Shown here in pieces: positions 3,753 through 60,244 of a stretch of 64,000 nucleotides of DNA. The DNA comes from Harriotta raleighana. Taxonomy: Eukaryota. Both the position numbers and the translations under genes were made by a program. The stretch is from assembly GCA_050575255.1 (NCBI GenBank), contig JBNZDD010013542.1, positions 1,054,369 to 1,118,368 on the forward strand, in the 5' to 3' direction. The notes under the pieces were generated by a model. That model ran no database searches. It was not told the DNA's origin and saw nothing but the letters and a program-made list of their open reading frames with translations. The first letter of the stretch is position 1, and each line of letters opens with the position of its first letter.

Positions 3753-4751
3753 AAGACAGCAATTGTTGGACCAGAAAGGGATGGTTAGGCTGCGTTTATC
3801 TGAGAGAAGGAAAGGAGTCAGAATGAGGGAGAGCGAGTGTGAGGTAGGACAGAGACCCCGGGACAGAAGAAAGATAAGAAAGTGCGGAAGATGGAGATGG
3901 AGCGAAATCAGAAAAAGTAGACAAAACACATAATTATACAAATGATCATTCTAGAAGGAATTTTTTTTTCTAAAATTGAAACTGAACTCTGAAAGATCTG
4001 GAAAGTCCATTTTAAAATAACACGTTTTAACGAGGAGGGGAATTTCTCTAGAATCCATCATAGATCACACATTCCCAAAGTGTATCAGATTGAATGTTTT
4101 CTAGGTAAATATCTGCCTCTGTGCGTGTGCTATGTTTTGGGCATGTGACCAAGAGGTATAATTTGCCTCTCTAAATAATGTAATATTGTTTACTCTGCTA
4201 TTTATACATTTGGCTTTTCTGCCTTATGGAAAATACAGACTTCCTTTGTACAGTATGCTGATGTTAGACATATACAGCATCCTATCACTATCCGACCACC
4301 AGGAAGGTACGAGGCGAACGAGATGGACCTTGGTTATTTTTTGTCTAGCATTTCTTATGTTCTTATGTACCTTGTGGCAACCTGGTTGAGCAAATGAACA
4401 TTCAGCAAAAGAACGGAAAGGAAAAAGAAATATTGATATGCGGCTTGCGGTCAGGCGATAGCATTTTGACTTCTCGCTGTCCATTTTTAAAATATACATA
4501 GTCATAAACATCTAACTACAATGAATTCATTACAACCATTTGAAACAGGTTGTTATAAGCATGGACACAGGATCCATAACGCAATTTGAAGTTGGTACTA
4601 CTTCACGTTTTACATTGAATCTTTGTTAATTGATGATCTACAAGATGACCTTATAATCTATTTACAAGGTCAATTGGGGGCTCTTCCCCTTCCTGTCTAC
4701 GTAAACAGCGAAGAGAGACATACTAAGCAGATATGACTTCACCAAAGAAAT

Positions 4752-5321
4752 ATTTCGCATTTTAGAGATTCGCTCTGGTTATTGCTTAGTTAGTTCAATC
4801 ATTTGGTTTTAGGGGCACACCATAAGAGTTGGNTCGCATTTTAGAGATTCGCTCTGGTCATTGCTTAGTTAGTTCAATCATTTGGTTTTAGGGGCACACC
4901 ATAAGAGTTGGATTTATTCTAGCCACTGACTGTGCTGTCCAATTTAACCCTTCAAAATCTATCCTAAAGTATTTGTTGCTCCATAACGTCAATTTGCAAA
5001 ACCAACAATGGAACAACGTTTTAAGAAAAAACATAGCCACTGCTCTGCCCTATGAGGACAAGACAATCGAGTTGTTTGGTGGGAATAACTTTATTATATC
5101 AAATATAAGGATTATTATTATTATATCTGAATTTTCATACAATGGGAGTTGTTGTGCAGGGAAATATCTCGTGAGAATGATATGCTTAGAAAAAACACAT
5201 GTTCTGGCAGACTCTGCTTAGAGACTTTCAACGAAAAATAAGTTTCTAATCTTACAGTAACCGTGTTTCTTTTGTTATGGATTGTCCCCTATGACCAGAG
5301 CGAATCTCTAAAATGCGAAAT
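4752..5321. mobile_element. Possible MITE / inverted-repeat element
   Basis: 31-bp inverted repeat ATTTCGCATTTTAGAGATTCGCTCTGGTYAT at 4752-4782 and 5291-5321. Confidence 0.4.
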
Positions 5322-7700: not shown

Positions 7701-9204
7701 TTTTATAGCCCACTGCAACTCTGCTGGCCCGAGGAAAACAATTCCACTGAAGCAAACAGATTGCGGAGTTAAGGGGGAGTCGAAAAGTATTTGTCTTTGA
7801 CCTATATATTCCCAATATCGTTCATAATATAGCTGCGGCCCATTACCCAAAACTTCTTAACTGGATTTATTAAAATGTGCTACAGATCAAGAGATATATT
7901 GAAAACAGAATTCCTTAAAATATTGATTAAGGTGATTGACGGTAACAACAACAACAACTTCGATTTATAATGCGCCCTCCACGCCGGACAGCGTCTCAGA
8001 GCGCTTCCAACGCGAACGTAACCCTAATTCTTAACAAAATAACGGAAACTACTCATTATTTTTAGATGTGGTGTAAGTAATTTATGTCAACCACCGAAAG
8101 CAAGTGCACACATCAAAATAGACCATTGAGCAAAATAATGATTTTGTCTTATACAATCAATGTTTTAAATTAAGGGAATTACTTATTGAGTTCTTCCCTC
8201 CAGTTCTGAAGAATCTGCCCAACAAATACAGACAATATATTATTAAATATGCTTGAATGTGTATTTTCCAGTCGTATCATATATGAAGACTTATAGTAAT
8301 AATGACTAAACTATCAATAATAATATCTTAATCTCCATTCCAATATTCCAAGGAAATCTCGGAATGCCGGTTTAAGTTTGTTAAAAAAATATCTTGTGTG
8401 TTAGAACTCACACAAAAAACTGTATTGGAAATGAAGTAAGAATCAAAATTGCATTGGTTGAAATCTTTACTCACGAGCAAGTATATTTGTTCTTTTACTT
8501 TATCAATTGATTTCCTTGCATTGAATTGTTTAATTGACTGAAGGCTGAAGGTGACGAGTGACATGACTGTGTTGTGAATCTCCCAAATCAGATGCAGAAA
8601 CAACATAGAACCCAACCATTTTTGTAGTTACTTCATAAGTTTAAACATTTGCCGTATATTAGTATCCTTTTGAACTGTTAAAAATGGAGTATGGAGCATG
8701 CCCTTTCAACAGTAAACTGAAAAAAATATGCAAAGTATGTTGGTAAATCGCTTGTTAATATATATTGCATAGTAAATGCATTTCAAAATTACTTTTAAGT
8801 TTAGTAGTTGAGGCCCCAATTGTTTTCAACTGTTGTAGCTCACAATACAAAATAGATTCGTATCGATTTTAATAGTAAACAATGGCCTTACTTTGCTTTG
8901 GTACACAGTTGAACTGAACTGTAGCCTCAGTGACATATAAAGTAATGTTGTGAATAGAATGAAGTTAAATTGTGCGCATAGCACGTCTGTTTAGAAGTAT
9001 TTCAAAAACAATATGAAATACTTAGTCATTTAAATAGATGGATCAACAACTACAGAAATGTTAATCTAAAGATTCTACGATCGTTTCTCGCGGGTGGGGG
9101 AGGAAGTTTGGGGAACACATGCACACACGCACACGCACACGAATGATAGCTGTGTGTAGATTGATTCATTTTATTGCAGTGATCCACAGCTATGTTGCTA
9201 TGTT

Positions 9205-9370
9205 TTTGCTATGTTGAAAGCAAATTTTCACCCAGTCAGAGCACTGAATATGTATCTGCCCTTTCTCTTTTCACTCAGCGATTATTTGAACGGAATCCTA
9301 CTTACTTGCAATTACCTTCGGATTCCCGGGTTAAAAGCTGCTGTCGTTTTCTTCTTTGTTTGTCCAGGCT
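9205..9370 (-). pseudogene. Decayed Hox11-type homeobox (putative HoxB11 pseudogene, exon 2)
   Basis: From 9359: TKKKTTAAFNPGIRR*LQVSRIPFK*SLSEKRKGRYIFSALT, then a 7-nt deletion, then VKICFQHSK (9231-9205). Matches Hox11 TRKK...QIRELE...KEKR...NLTDRQVKIWFQNRR in spacing with one extra codon. Confidence 0.75.
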
Positions 9371-9673
9371 CGGAAGAGCTTGATTTCTCTCCCACCCCCT
9401 CTCTACCGATTTGGTGTTTGTTAGCAGAGACGTTTTTTGTCAGCTTGCAGTCTGTCCTCACATAAAATTGACACAGACAGGCCATAAACTGTCTGGCTGC
9501 TGTGTACACGTCTTGTAGAACGCCTACAGAAATACCTCTTTATATATTTAGACCCTCTCACAAACCTGCAACCGAGGACATGATTTATTTTAATGCAGAA
9601 TTAAATTTATGCTTTATTTTTTATGAAATCCCTGTCATTTGTTAGCCGGTAAAGTTTACGAAAGAAGACCTAC

Positions 9674-10200
9674 AAAGAAGGGTGGAACCATCCCTAGCTA
9701 TACATTGTACTTGATCATGGATGTGTTTGTGTGACTGCAAAGTTCAAGACGTCTTTAGATAATGTCAATATTGCTGGGTTCAAAATCCACCTTTTGTTTC
9801 TTTTAAAGCAAGGCTTTGGAGGGAGGAAAGGAAGGAAGGAAGATTTTGTTGCAAATTAACTAGCTCTGTTGGTGATTTGAGCTATTTATTAGCGTATCCT
9901 GGAGGCAACACACCACAAATGGTTGAACTTCTCTCGTTTTTTTCCCCTTTCCCTCTATTGTTTTTCCCCCCTGGAGTTCCTAACCTTGAAACGGCTCCAG
10001 ACTTAAAACTTATTCCCTGGGCGCATTCCCCTGTCGGATTTATTTGTCGCTCTGAGAAGCGTTTGAAAGCCACTCTTTACTCTTGAGAATGTTTACCGTC
10101 CTGGTAACTCTGCTGACAATCACAGTCGAGTGAAGCCGTTTGTTGTTGGCGGCTGTTGACTCTGTGGTGGTTTGCTTATGGGTAGAGAAGTCCTTCAAAT
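9674..10200 (-). pseudogene. Putative HoxB11 pseudogene, exon 1 remnant
   Basis: Ordered Hox11 exon-1-like fragments across frameshifts: DFST (10192), VAF (10073; cf. VREVAF/VREVTF), K*IRQGN (cf. KWHPRGN, same spacing), GVLPPG (~9914; cf. NGVLPQ). Candidate donor GTAGGT near 9673. Boundaries are approximate. Confidence 0.5.
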
Positions 10201-13200
10201 ATTTTATTTCGGGGGAAACAACGCTTTAATGCAAAGATAATTAAATTTACTTTAATAAAGTTTGGGGTTTTCTTGTCGGTTCATTGAGTTAGTTCGATGT
10301 GGCAGTTAAAGAATAAAAATAAAACTAGACTGAATACATCTTTAGGAAAATACGGTAAAAATGTCTTATAAAGTTATTTATAATCCGAATTCATAATCGA
10401 TGGAGAATTCGAGACAGTTTATCCTTCTACATGGGGATGACGTATAATCACGTGATCATACCAACATATGGCCCCTTTTTTTTAGCAAACTTTCTACTTT
10501 CAAATTCGAAATATTGTCAGTGATTAGACATAGAATCTACCAATCTCCGATTTAGTTTGCATAATTTCTGTTTTCACTGTTAGTTATCAATGTTACTGTG
10601 GCGGGTTATAGATGGTAAGTATACCATCAGCTTTCTAAAGGAAGCATTCTTTTCAAAATTGTCCATTTGTTTTGCATACTATGTATTAACTAAATATATT
10701 TATAAATACTACATATAGTTCTGGAACATTCTTACTATAACAAAGAATTCCAACAGTGCAGTTTGTTTTGGTGATTCGTAAATATATTATTTTACAACTC
10801 TGACAATCTCTGAGAGACGGGAAGAAACAATAAATGAAATAGAGAAAAATAACATAAACTTTTGTCATTTACATGCAATAAGCGATAGAAATGCCTCGCT
10901 ATAAGTTTTGAATCCCATCTACTCCCAAATCAAAACTTGGAGATATCGTTGAAAACTTCTTGACTAAATTTGAGTGCTCGTGAAATTAACTGTTTTGCAA
11001 ACCATCATAATTTCAACCAACATATTACAGTAGTAACATAACATTTTGCACCTATTGCCTTATTCAGTATGGCAGGACAATGTTTGGTAATTGGAAATTA
11101 ATTCGTTATTGAATTAATTGTAATAGGAAAATAACTACTTTTCAATACTAGTTTTCAAGTTCGGATCGTCGAGCATAAATAATCACCAAACCGCAGGGCT
11201 GTCAGTGTAGGTGTTGTTCATATGGTGAGTTTAATGAAACATTTTAACCTTTAATGGTGCTCTGTAGAGTAGGACGTCCCACGTCAAACGATAATATCTT
11301 TAACTAGCCTGTAAATAAAAATGTCTCCTTCAGTCTCATTGTTTGATTCAGTCTCATTGTAATTGCCATATGCACTGCCTACAGACTTCCAAGATTGAAA
11401 GACAATCATTTACAGGAGGCAGGAACAAGGGGACATGTCGGTAAAACAATACAAGTTTTGAAATAAAACGCAATTTAATTTAATTTAAATTATAACATAG
11501 ACATACATAAAGACGTCGTGCGTGTCACGAGAAATAATGCTGATATTATTATTTTATTTTCGTGATGTGTCAGCTGAGTGACGATTAGAAATGCCTCACG
11601 GTAAAAGCACAAAGGATAAGAAATGCAACCCCATAAATAGAGTTATTAGTTTGGGAACTTTTTGTCGGCTGATCATTCATCAACCGAATTAGTCTGAAAT
11701 CAACATAATTTGGAAATTCTTCTCGTTTTTTATTTTCGTATTACTGCATATCTTACTTGTCTTTATGGAAAAGTTGCTGTATTGTTTGACCTGGGAGGGT
11801 ATTTCCTGGAGCGCTTTTGATTTGACGCGTTTCTGGCAGAAACATGTTGCAAAACCTTAAAAACACGATGCACTTTCAACCAAATATTTTAATAAAATGA
11901 AGAGAAATTAAATAACATGGTTTATCTTCGTGAACGAATAAAAAAAGTTATACATCACGCGGCTTAGATAAACGTGGAAAATAATATCATCCTCGATTTT
12001 CACTTAGTTATTGAATGCATGATGATTGATATATTTATTCTAATTGTTAAATAAAACAACAATCTTAAGTGGTTTGCCTAGATTTTTCAAGAATCTTATC
12101 AATTATTACAAAAACTGGATAAAAAACGAAAATGTAAATATATGTATTTAAATCTAGGGGAGAACTAAACAGGGGAAAGCGAATGAATAATTCAACACAA
12201 AAGGTGAATTTTAATCTAAAATTCTTCGTTACGATTTTATAAGATTTTAAAAATCATTTAAAAATCAACTTGGCGTACAGAATATCGCGCACAAACTATG
12301 CAAAAAACTCTCTCTTTCTTCACTCCGAGATGGATTACGGAATTACGAGTATTCATAAAAACAACGCCACAATCGCCAAATCGTAGTCTTTATAAATTAC
12401 TTGCCCTCATTCTGTTGATGATTATTGAAATTTCAATTATTATTTGAGTGTGAAGCAACTTCGAGCCTTAATGTGTGCAGAGACGCCTGTGCCTTTTGTC
12501 TGCCTTTTTTTTCCACAGAGCTGATCAGAGCTAAATCAGAGCTGATATAAAACGGTTGATTTGCCGTCAAGTTAGCGAAACTTGTGTAAGAGTTACAAAC
12601 TCCGCAAAACGCGAAGCCGATCCCAGACAGTTTGGAGCAGATATTGACGTGAAATAATTCATCGGTAAATCAAAAGAGTGAACGACTAGAAAGTGAGTAA
12701 ACATAAAAAACCTGCTGTGTTTGAGAGATTTGGAATGGAGGGAGGAGGGAGGGAGGGAGGGGTGATTGGCAAGGGGCTAAATTCATGTTCAAAGTCAGAT
12801 GGCAAGTAAAGTTATATTGTAAAGAATGACACTGGCAACTTGTAACACATAAACTGTGTCTATAACTGATAAATTACTTACTGTTGCACTTACATTCTGA
12901 ATACAACTCAGAGCAGGCGAGACACTAGGATTCATATATAGCGCACAGATATAAACCTTTCTTCGTCAACACAAACAGGAACAATGAGGAGGCGTGAGCA
13001 ATGAATGCATCATATCTACAGTGCTCCATCTTATCAAATCCCAACTTCCATTGGTTGCAAACGTCTCCTCCGCCTGTTTAGAAATTTCCTTGGACTCTTT
13101 TAGCTGCGACTTGGCATTTGCGCTGAAACTTGGAGACATTTCTGACATGCGTAGGGTGGGGGATTATTTAACTCACTCTGTGGTTTGTGAATGTTTGCGC

Positions 13201-13359
13201 TCTGTACTGAAATTGAAAGTATGGTTGAAACAAGTGTGAAATCTTCGCATGAGATTCCGCTTCTTCAATTCTTCAAATCCCGTCTCTGGGATAAAACTAT
13301 TTTTTTCTTTTAACACGCGGACCACGCATCTATCTATTGACTCCCACAAAAAGTTCCAC

Positions 13360-13680
13360 TCACTCACTCACTCAGTCACGTACATTCAGTCACGCACACT
13401 CGGGTACTTACTGTTACGCAGTGAGTACACACACATGCACATACTTCACATAAAAATACACAGTCGAACCCACAGTCGAAACACACAAACACAAAATACA
13501 ACTCAGAGCAGGCGAGACACTAGGATGCATGCAAAACACACATACATCACACACACACACACATACATGCGCGTGAACATACGCATACATGTAAAAAATG
13601 ACAAGGAAACACAGATACAATCACGAGAACTTACACACAAAGGCGCATGCATCCACAATAACTATTTCAGACACACAAAT
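13360..13680. repeat. Degenerate CA-rich low-complexity tract
   Basis: (CACT)n and (CA)n arrays. Confidence 0.7.
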
Positions 13681-15269
13681 ACCAATGAACCATCTTTAAC
13701 ATAATATTCCAACCCTGTCCACTCTCCCACAATGAGAATGCTGTTAGTTAATTACAGATGAATCGATAGGGCAGCTCAACTTCACTTTTACAGACCAATT
13801 CAGCAAGAAAGATTAGTAACAAAAAACAAAGATTTTTTCAATCCAGGTCGTGTGAAAACTATCCTTTTTATTGCAGACTTCCCGAGAAAGCCCCAGAAAA
13901 GTATAATCACGCATTTTTTATGGGCGAGGTTCGGTTAAGGTTTCTGTTAATAAGTGACCAATGTCGAAGAGCTCATATAATAAATATGAATGTTGTAACG
14001 CTGTATGCATGCAGTACATTGAATTACCATTATCTGAATATTTCGGGTTTGCTTTGAAACTTTATGAATGTCGTTTTTTTCACCTCCTTGGAGTTTTTAT
14101 TAATCCTTTACAAAATATTAAACCGAACTGGAAGAGGCCCAACTTCTTTACGACGATGATTTTACTTTAAATTCTCCATGCATCCGTGTTTGAATATGTT
14201 AGACAAAGACTCATCTGTATCAGGGAAAAGTGACGTGAGTGTTAAACGATTCTCAGTGTTTTCTAAAAGTATTTAAAAAAAATTGAATCTCTATTTTGAC
14301 AGCTATCCATTTTACAGATCGGTACCAGAAATTATTGTGTGTCCAATGTAAATATAATTATTAATCTAAACGTATTAATATTGTTATTAATTATTTTGAA
14401 AAGGCACGTCAGAATATCATCCTGGGGATTTAACGGGACTACAGAGAATCTCTGAACCGAAATTCTGCATTACAAATTCTCTGATGTTGAAATGTTGATG
14501 TTCATTGTATTGAGTAAATTAGAAAGTATTTCATTTCCATCTCAATATTCATCCCATTCCCATCATACCATCTATTAATTTGAATATGATACTGTTAACA
14601 TATAATATAAATTCCCTTCTAGATGCACTATAAAAGAGCATCTAATGCAAAACAATCGTTTATAGAGGAAATACATTTAGGCTATTCTACTTATTATAAT
14701 TACACGCTTATGTTTTATTTTTGAATATTTCATAAAAATATGTTTTACTTTATAACAATAAACATAAAACAGTAAAACCGACAGATTCACCCTATTGTCA
14801 ATTTTTTTTCTGCAGACTAATAATTCAATGGTTGTTGCAATCAAAGTTACGAAATGCGTCTCATCTCACTATTATCCAGACATGTAAAAAATGTTCAATC
14901 CGCGGTTACTGATCTAGCAACCCAGACTGTATGCTTTGTCAACCTGCGGGAAAAATCCTGAACATTTATTAAATATTGTACTATTGAAGATTAAACTTCG
15001 CGTTAAGATGATCAGTTATAATATCGCTGTAAATATTTTGACCTTTCAGCATCCCAATTTCCGGAACTGACTTTTCATGCGAGAAAGTAATCGCAATTCA
15101 CTTGCGAGGAGATATTTTGAACGGCAGAGGGCGCGCTAGTGTAGCTAGCTGCGAAACAAATGAAAGATTGTCCAGTCGATGTGTAGACTTGTTGTTCAGC
15201 TGTCGTTCGAAATTCAGATCCTAACCCTTACATGTTGATTTTAAAAATAGTTCCAAGTTGCATCCCGAG

Positions 15270-24331: not shown

Positions 24332-24636
24332 TGATAATAATAATCATAATAATAATCCTTGCATTTGATATAGCGCTTTTCACATCTAGATGTCTCAAAG
24401 CACTTCACAGAAATATGCTGTAAAGAGAATTGACTACATATGTGGGTGAAACATGGTGGCCAATTGCAGTAACCAGTGTCCCACAAACAGCCATGGATTG
24501 AAATGACCAACTTTTTTTTGGAGGAATTATTATTATGTGTGTGGAGTAGGAAACTTGCTTAAGGTTTCGCCAAGATCTGCCTGGATTCAAACACAGGTCT
24601 CGCGCTTGTAAGGCGAGTTCTCTAACCACTGAGCTA
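24332..24636 (-). mobile_element. tRNA-derived SINE, near full length
   Basis: Same family on the reverse strand with an (ATT)n tail. Confidence 0.85.
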
Positions 24637-24921
24637 AAGCAGAGTGGTAGGTTTCTATGGGAATCAGACAGTAAGATGACCGAACAAGTCAGTCAATGGA
24701 TTTTAAACAGTGCCTGTTCTACGTTAAAAAATTCAGTGGGCGTTTCACCAACAAAATATACAGTCAATTCAGGGTACAGTATACAGTAGTCACTCCGGTA
24801 TGCATTCACAGAGGTCCTGCCAACCGTACCAGATTTAGAGGAAACCCAGTTGAGTAAAACTAATTCAAATGAACTGTAATATGAAATTTAGAAAATAATA
24901 TCACTTTAAAATAAAGAATAT

Positions 24922-32437: not shown

Positions 32438-32778
32438 TAGTCCTGTAGCTCAGTGGTCAGAGAACTCGCCTTACAAGCGAGAAACCTCGGTTCGAGTCCA
32501 GGCAAAGGAAAAGCTTGGGGAAGTTTTTTTACTTCTCGTGCCTCACAATAATCCCTCAAAAAAAATTATATTAAAAAATTTGTCAATTCTGTTTGTGGGA
32601 TACTGCTGTGTGCAATTGGCTACTGCGTTTTCCCACAAATATACGGTCAATTCACTTTATAGTATGTTCTGTGAAGCACTTTTAGATGTCTAGAAGACAT
32701 GAACAGCACTATATCAAATCCAAGGATTGTTATTATGATGATTATTGTTATTACTATTATTATTGTTATTGTTATTAT
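32438..32778 (+). mobile_element. tRNA-derived SINE, full length with expanded (ATT)n tail
   Basis: AGTCCTGTAGCTCAGTGGTCAGAG...GGTTCGAGTCC head, family body, TTA-repeat tail. Confidence 0.85.
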
Positions 32779-35295: not shown

Positions 35296-35604
35296 ATATT
35301 AATCCTTTCATTTGATATAGCGCTTTTCACGTCTTCCAGACGTCTCAAAGGGGTTTACAGAATATACAGTAGAGTGAATTGACTGTGTATTTGTGGACGA
35401 AAATGCGATAACCAATTGCGCACGGCAGTGTCCCATAAACAGTCCTGGATTCAAATGATCAATTTATTATCGTTTTTTGGGGACGGATTATTAATAGGCA
35501 TGTGGAGTAAGGAAACTTTCCCAAGGTTTCGCCCTGCCTGGATTCGAAACACAGGTCTCACGCTTGTAAACCGAGTGCTCTAACCACTGAGCCACAGGTC
35601 TCCA
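35296..35604 (-). mobile_element. tRNA-derived SINE, full length
   Basis: Reverse head GGAGACCTGTGGCTCAGTGGTTAGAGCACTCGG...TTCGAATCCAGG with body and tail. Confidence 0.85.
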
Positions 35605-60090: not shown

Positions 60091-60244
60091 NNNNNNNNNN
60101 NNNNNNNNNNNNNNNNNNNNNNNNNNNNNNNNNNNNNNNNNNNNNNNNNNNNNNNNNNNNNNNNNNNNNNNNNNNNNNNNNNNNNNNNNNNNNNNNNNNN
60201 NNNNNNNNNNNNNNNNNNNNNNNNNNNNNNNNNNNNNNNNNNNN
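60091..60244. other. Assembly gap (N run)
   Basis: Run of N. Confidence 0.99.

Follow-up and report, generated by a model that had tools for sequence, protein, structure and literature searches.

The Hox inventory of the holocephalan Callorhinchus milii, according to the available portion of its description, consists of 45 genes plus two Hox14 pseudogenes, and HoxB11 is absent from it (PMC3707753). The gene is likewise lacking in the published lists of jawed-vertebrate Hox genes. The accessible part of PMC7269910 assigns hoxb14 to the ancestral gnathostome complement, and excerpts of PMC3964593 give C. milii the lowest neutral rate among the vertebrates compared. Here we describe, in a 64-kb window (the whole stretch of DNA that was analyzed), a decayed homeobox that is probably what is left of a dead HoxB11 gene, decayed in place as a unitary pseudogene. 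Our literature search found no paper on a HoxB11 pseudogene, and figures and supplements could bear on its novelty. No HoxB11 remnant is mentioned in the available portions of PMC3707753, PMC1845163, PMC12952989, PMC7269910, bioRxiv 10.1101/2024.07.20.604409, PMC3964593, PMC10620051, PMC10115646 and PMC3038165.

The sole intact homeobox gene within the window is HoxB13, on the minus strand, which matches the Pfam families HoxA13_N and Homeodomain. Its exon 1 is identical to that of C. milii HoxB13 at 221 of 225 residues, the best shark sequence reaching 83%, so that the window can be assigned to a holocephalan HoxB cluster, that of C. milii in a variant form or of a species closely related to it; judged from its sequence, it is the 5' end of such a cluster. 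The cluster, strand and lineage of the window are fixed by HoxB13. The decayed homeobox shares the strand of HoxB13 and lies 34 kb downstream of it, apparently where groups 12 and 11 (12-10) would be expected. HoxB10 was not found inside the window and should lie beyond its base 1, and no remnant of HoxB12, HoxB10 or HoxB14 was found in the window with the models used. For HoxB12, the interval 42900-9500 on the minus strand gave at best 11.7 bits with the Hox12 model for the whole domain and 12.8 bits for residues 1-44.

Several minor features of the window may be recorded here. A short match to Hox11 residues about 14-35, without extension to the full domain, occurs at 54085-54014 on the minus strand (16.9 bits for residues 21-36; nhmmer E 0.02-0.05 in two settings), 10 kb upstream of HoxB13 and roughly where the reported HoxB14 pseudogene could sit. 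Another, to Hox11 residues 19-35 at 4720-4665 on the same strand (20.9 bits for residues 21-36, 6.3 bits for the whole domain), is probably due to chance. Three weak tRNA matches (24575-24643, 32441-32510 and 35529-35601) are probably the heads of SINEs. The region of 16-31 kb is mostly CpG-poor, in contrast to the remaining window, and positions 1-1000 have a CpG observed/expected ratio of 1.31, a rise of the kind expected near a next gene. There is a run of 154 N at 60091-60244, and single N are found at 4833 and 51943.

Base probabilities for the homeodomain were taken from named group-11, 10, 9 and 13 proteins and one named partial group-12 protein, and were combined with a decay model of our own construction (0.5 substitutions per site, indel opening 0.02) that sums over the whole domain by the forward method on both strands. 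Gap costs were explored first and were afterwards set from what we took to be a typical neutral indel rate; the whole grid is reported. The Hox11 model gave 71.3 bits for HoxB13 and 29.5 bits for a whole domain ending at 9254, and the next place on either strand reached 11.4 bits. Apart from HoxB13, the domain ending at 9254 topped both strands (128 kb) in all 18 parameter settings, with a lead of at least 9.4 bits, and when transitions were not favored in the scoring it obtained 22.3 vs 13.3 bits.

The alignment of this domain (register B) begins about 75 nt further upstream than that of the original prediction, which had placed the feature at 9370-9189; including the second helix 3 and the microduplication, the whole remnant spans about 9457-9189 on the minus strand (Table 1). 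In register B, AAA AAA CGT corresponds to K3 K4 R5 (9438-9430), AAA CAC CAA ATC to residues 10-13 (K10-I13; 9419-9408) and AGA GAA to R18 E19 (9390-9385). These are followed by N27 K28 E29 K30 R31 x Q33 L34 S35 R36 (9360-9326), of which residues 27-34 are written as AAC AAA GAA, two extra bases and AAA CGA CAG CAG CTT (9360-9335). Residue 36 ends at 9326, V45 is represented by GTA at 9301, and AAT CGC TGA GTG AAA (9283-9269) gives N51 and R52, a stop, V and K for residues 51-55. Identity to group 11 is found at 83 of 121 fixed model positions; the alignment carries stops and several indels of 1-5 nt, and the match is spread over three frames. The flanking GGA CAG, which may perhaps mark the start of exon 2, contributes about 1 bit only. 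Stops and frameshifts are present in every reading of the remnant, both registers being disabled and without an open frame, and the remnant encodes no protein.

Table 1. Positions of HoxB13 and of the parts of the decayed homeobox in the window
Feature	Position	Strand	Basis or detail
HoxB13, intact	44267-43001	minus	exon 1, 44267-43592; exon 2, about 43250-43001
Decayed Hox11-type homeobox, residues about 1-60 (register B)	about 9445-9254	minus	glocal forward, 29.5 bits
GGA CAG, possible G-Q preceding HoxA11 homeodomain, candidate exon 2 start	9452-9457	minus	A11 model with flank
Second helix-3-like copy (motif of the original prediction)	9205-9239	minus	15.8 bits, residues 45-53
Possible group-11 tail remnant, AGA TAC ATA TT CAG TGC	9234-9253	minus	alignable by eye
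Triple AACATAGC microduplication, ends the match	9189-9216	minus	read from sequence
TTTATGG (9488) and TTTTATG (9467), possible intron remnant	9461-9488	minus	directly upstream

By the decay model and its permutation controls, this is probably homeobox-derived DNA, with collinear similarity above chance over all 60 codons. The maximum among 111 fifth-order Markov strands of 64 kb was 16.6 bits (fitted tail 3e-5), and none of 95 column-shuffled models reached the score in the 43-kb interval (maximum 20.8 bits, fitted tail 3e-4). On both whole strands 29.5 bits were reached by none of 269 decoys, and in the remnant region the score was reached by none of 1915 column shuffles and none of 882 shuffles of five-residue blocks; dinucleotide shuffles of the segment likewise failed to reach it (0 of 7659). 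In the most apt test, the place was fixed by the helix-3 motif, the motif itself was excluded and the preceding 300 nt were scored: none of 4149 decoys did as well, with either the window-wide or the local background. Five group models were tried, and the conclusions on chance are unaffected by this. The two halves of the domain fall in register independently, residues 1-30 ending at 9349 and residues 31-60 at 9254, and random replacements of the 3' half, which holds the first helix-3 copy, did as well in 2 of 2099 cases. The Hox9, Hox10 and Hox13 models and eight of ten other homeodomain models also peak at 9254-9258, the remaining two at the second helix 3.

Base composition accounts for about 16 of the 29.5 bits. 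A local background leaves 13.3 bits, with which the remnant keeps its rank directly behind HoxB13; 17 of 269 window-wide decoys, however, do as well. The composition of the segment (A 0.385, C 0.188, G 0.26, T 0.167) resembles that of the HoxB13 homeobox (0.433, 0.189, 0.228 and 0.15, respectively), which loses the same 16 bits to the correction. The check by nucleotide HMM that accompanied the original prediction gave a divided answer, standard nhmmer being not significant and the decay model with permutation controls being significant. With gap-free models, nhmmer matched only the previously noted helix 3 (E 0.36-1.2, not significant). With indel-trained models, register B was matched in two of three settings (E 0.41 and 0.29, after an 11-bit composition penalty) and in the third was not among the four matches listed; with the composition penalty off, other places score as high as register B, and a search of the region alone gave E 0.79. 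Among simulated remnants of like forward score, 95 of 105 reach E<0.05 and 7 of 105 are as poor as the real one. Pfam, including Homeodomain (PF00046), matched no family in any of the six single frames with X at stops, and a PDB search with the originally proposed frame gave no match. The place was detected by neither nhmmer nor tblastn with the HoxB13 homeobox as query, and tblastn with 16 full Hox11 proteins gave nothing at the remnant among the best four matches listed per query. The group-diagnostic middle of the domain (residues 13-44) is weak when taken alone, 32 of 6496 decoys equalling it globally and 687 of 6496 locally, and for residues 21-36 the places at 4665 and 54014 outscore the remnant. 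Fitting gives a high indel rate (0.03-0.07 per site); the transition excess under neutral scoring, 0.46 vs 0.34 +/- 0.07, is not significant, with 482 of 8108 decoys as high.

With respect to paralog group, the homeodomain is nearer to group 11 than to groups 9, 10, 12, 13 or the anterior classes. In register B, the 29.5 bits of Hox11 compare with 19.5 for Hox13, 17.2 for the Hox8-like model, 12.8 for Hox10, 10.9 for Hox9 and 9.9 for Hox12, in a comparison of model likelihoods across these six classes. The ten other classes, as well as residues 45-60 of Hox12 and a part of Hox9, were represented by unnamed multi-homeodomain models, whose class labels we assumed. Simulated group-11 remnants showed a Hox11 margin of 10 bits in 117 of 240 cases, simulated remnants of five other groups in none of 1200. 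When only named references and residues 1-44 are used, the scores are 19.5 (Hox11), 13.6 (Hox13), 6.6 (Hox9), 5.3 (Hox10) and -0.7 bits (Hox12), and the margin over Hox13 shrinks to 5.9 bits. For residues 21-36, Hox11 obtains 15.7 bits vs 6.1, 2.0, -0.2 and -0.5 for Hox13, Hox10, Hox12 and Hox9. Single-paralog models give 32.5 bits for A11, 29.2 for D11 and 26.0 for C11, a lead of A11 that is too small to build on.

The original prediction had recognized helix 3 in GTG AAA ATT TGC TTT CAA CAT AGC AAA (9231-9205, minus), four substitutions from a VKIWFQNRR coding string. The letters bear this out, and, apart from HoxB13, no other place in the window matches residues 45-53 as well: none of 852 other 150-nt blocks reaches the 15.8 bits of this string. 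Equally present are the preceding CTG ACT (9239-9234) with its 7-nt deletion (2 nt where 9 are expected), the two stops (TAA at 9314-9312 and 9284-9282 in the frame then used) and the three copies of AACATAGC. The case is different for the upstream anchors T-KK, IR, *LQ and EKR, which had been placed at Hox11 spacing: residues 1-41 in that register score only 1.1 bits for Hox11, and 536 of 5049 column-shuffled decoys are as good. IRELE and EKR were thought to separate group 11 from groups 10 and 12, but Hox13 (8.2 bits), Hox12 (5.4) and Hox10 (5.2) all score higher than Hox11 there. The supposed diagnostic anchors are therefore due to chance. The bases of T-KK are the INKEK codons (AAC AAA GAA, 9360-9352) read one base off, and EKR falls within residues 54-57 of register B; residues 1-36 (about 9445-9326) obtain 22.4 bits in register B vs 1.2 in the earlier one. 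The best whole-domain fit of the earlier register is Hox12 (17.3 vs 11.3 bits for Hox11), within the decoy range. A Hox12 identity is not supported, with 9.9 bits in register B and, in the earlier register, a score below the decoy maxima of 20.4-21.6 bits (from Hox11 columns). What survives of the original prediction is its conclusion, a decayed group-11 homeobox that would be HoxB11 by position; the alignment given for it does not.

The second helix 3 trails the first by about 70 nt, starting 23 nt beyond the point where the first domain ends. A duplication model that runs to residue 68 and restarts at residue 44 gives 44.7 bits (1 of 201 controls) and, on a coarser grid, 40.3 bits, reached by 1 of 1637 controls. 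The two helix-3 copies are most simply explained if about 70-80 nt were duplicated in tandem early in decay; the second copy probably comes from such a duplication within exon 2, involving its 3' part. The possible group-11 tail is not significant, 661 of 2042 random replacements scoring as well.

Exon 1 of Hox11 (the PF12045 region) gave no relevant Pfam match in 30 frames over 9401-14352, and exon-1 block models did no better than the plus-strand background. Four leads, namely CACGTG at 10449-10454, ATG at 10394, a GVLP-like string at 9915-9893 and an ATG near 12660, were also no better than background. At 10454-10380 on the minus strand, ATCACGTGA with CGTCA six bases on resembles a leader motif that two eel HoxA11 gene models include in their translation; after it come the ATG at 10394 and, about 160 codons on, the GVLP-like string, in the right place for exon 1. 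This leader motif ranks fourth on the strand, not above background. The TTTATGG and TTTTATG directly upstream of the homeobox, which we take to resemble HOX/CDX sites of Hox introns, are sequences that occur 9 and 16 times, respectively, on the minus strand. The AT-rich region of 9700-9460 (minus) has several TTTATG, CATAAA and TCGTAAA motifs, presumably like the HOX/CDX sites in Hox introns, and could be a retained regulatory element.

A purine-rich, low-complexity stretch might mimic an A/G-rich homeobox and adjoin a helix-3-like 27-mer by chance. The nonsignificant nhmmer and Pfam results, the decoys that reach the local-background score, the short Hox11-like matches elsewhere in the window and the many indels required are all in keeping with such an origin, but we judge it unlikely, given that composition-keeping decoys and shuffles fall short of the score and that the best whole-domain and best helix-3 matches of the window lie 25 nt apart on the expected strand. 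It is very unlikely that the remnant derives from a true posterior Hox homeobox of a different group, be it 13, 12, 14 or an extra local duplicate: the 10-bit margin of Hox11 was never seen in the non-11 simulations, residues 21-36 score higher for Hox11 than for groups 13, 10, 12 and 9, and a position downstream of HoxB13 is wrong for group 14, even though Hox13 scores 19.5 bits, the margin shrinks with named references, Hox12 is best in the earlier register and Hox14 stands outside the model comparison. The A11-only model fits best, as would be expected of a transposed or segmentally copied piece of HoxA11, which, like one of C11 or D11, would not be the B paralog. Such an origin is barely conceivable, since the remnant has the strand of the cluster and occupies the rank of group 11. 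The (AB)(CD) tree of Hox clusters would moreover give an A-like HoxB11.

The remaining alternatives concern the internal anatomy of the remnant. HoxB11 might be represented with a single helix 3, the originally noted motif being the true one after an unrelated 70-nt insertion or else a chance reading in the tail. This we find doubtful, though it deserves a place within the HoxB11 interpretation, from which it differs in internal anatomy only and of which it takes a share of about a third. Residues 37-60 score only 10.3 bits in the first copy and 14.7 in the second, and an insertion is conceivable because blastn shows no direct DNA similarity between the two copies; against this, the first copy was matched by 2 of 2099 controls and the second by 1 of 1637. 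That the earlier register is right throughout, with the homeodomain starting at 9359 and one helix 3 at 9231, is largely refuted and highly improbable. It needs few indels and has the cleanest local match as its helix 3, but its residues 1-41 are at the level of decoys and its residues 1-36 fall far below register B.

A dead HoxB11 is thus our preferred interpretation. A unitary pseudogene has a disabled frame at the ancestral locus, and stops and indels were found in both registers. The group-11 copy that the HoxB cluster would have received in the vertebrate genome duplications would have left its exon 2 where it first stood, in unchanged orientation and 34 kb downstream of HoxB13. Its function would have been lost long ago, with subsequent drift by substitutions and small indels; the best-fit distance is about 0.3-0.4 substitutions per site (range 0.2-0.6). 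Together with the loss or shortly after it, about 70-80 nt holding helix 3 would have been duplicated in tandem, and the AACATAGC repeats, which are plainly present, would have been added by later slippage. Slow change of holocephalan DNA and the lack of a deletion at this spot may have kept the remnant legible. The remnant is unlikely to serve as a functional gene today. Being uncalibrated, the fitted distance allows a loss either before or after cartilaginous and bony fishes split, and the accessible part of one supplement file of PMC3964593 holds no neutral branch length for dating. As a tentative possibility, which we take seriously without favoring it, the last common ancestor of living jawed vertebrates still had a working HoxB11, and bony vertebrates and cartilaginous fishes lost it independently, the cartilaginous fishes via the helix-3 duplication.

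If true, a HoxB11 trace would be direct evidence of a former group-11 gene in the B cluster and of its loss by decay in place, not by deletion. To the cluster tree it would add a fourth group-11 sequence, and the date of the loss would become testable from several chimaera and shark genomes. By the logic applied to hoxb14 in the available portion of PMC7269910, it could change the ancestral gnathostome Hox complement; if HoxB11 worked in the jawed-vertebrate ancestor, all four group-11 genes would be ancestral, one above current reconstructions.

The remnant is like HoxA11, HoxC11 and HoxD11 in its best-fitting homeodomain model and in the group-11 stretch NKEKRxQLSR at 9360-9326; unlike these genes, it has no open frame, and neither exon 1 nor the tail is significant. 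It is also comparable to the HoxA14 and HoxB14 pseudogenes of C. milii, which, in the available portion of their description, are dead posterior Hox genes kept in place in holocephalan clusters (PMC3707753). In contrast to these, it would represent another paralog group, between HoxB13 and HoxB10, and it is outside the C. milii inventory that lists the Hox14 pseudogenes (PMC3707753, same portion). Group 14 itself differs from the remnant in that its homeobox is interrupted by an intron and that its A or D members are intact. Unlike the amniote spacer between Hoxb9 and Hoxb13, the interval described here probably retains a gene trace, which points to decay in place for at least group 11 in this lineage.
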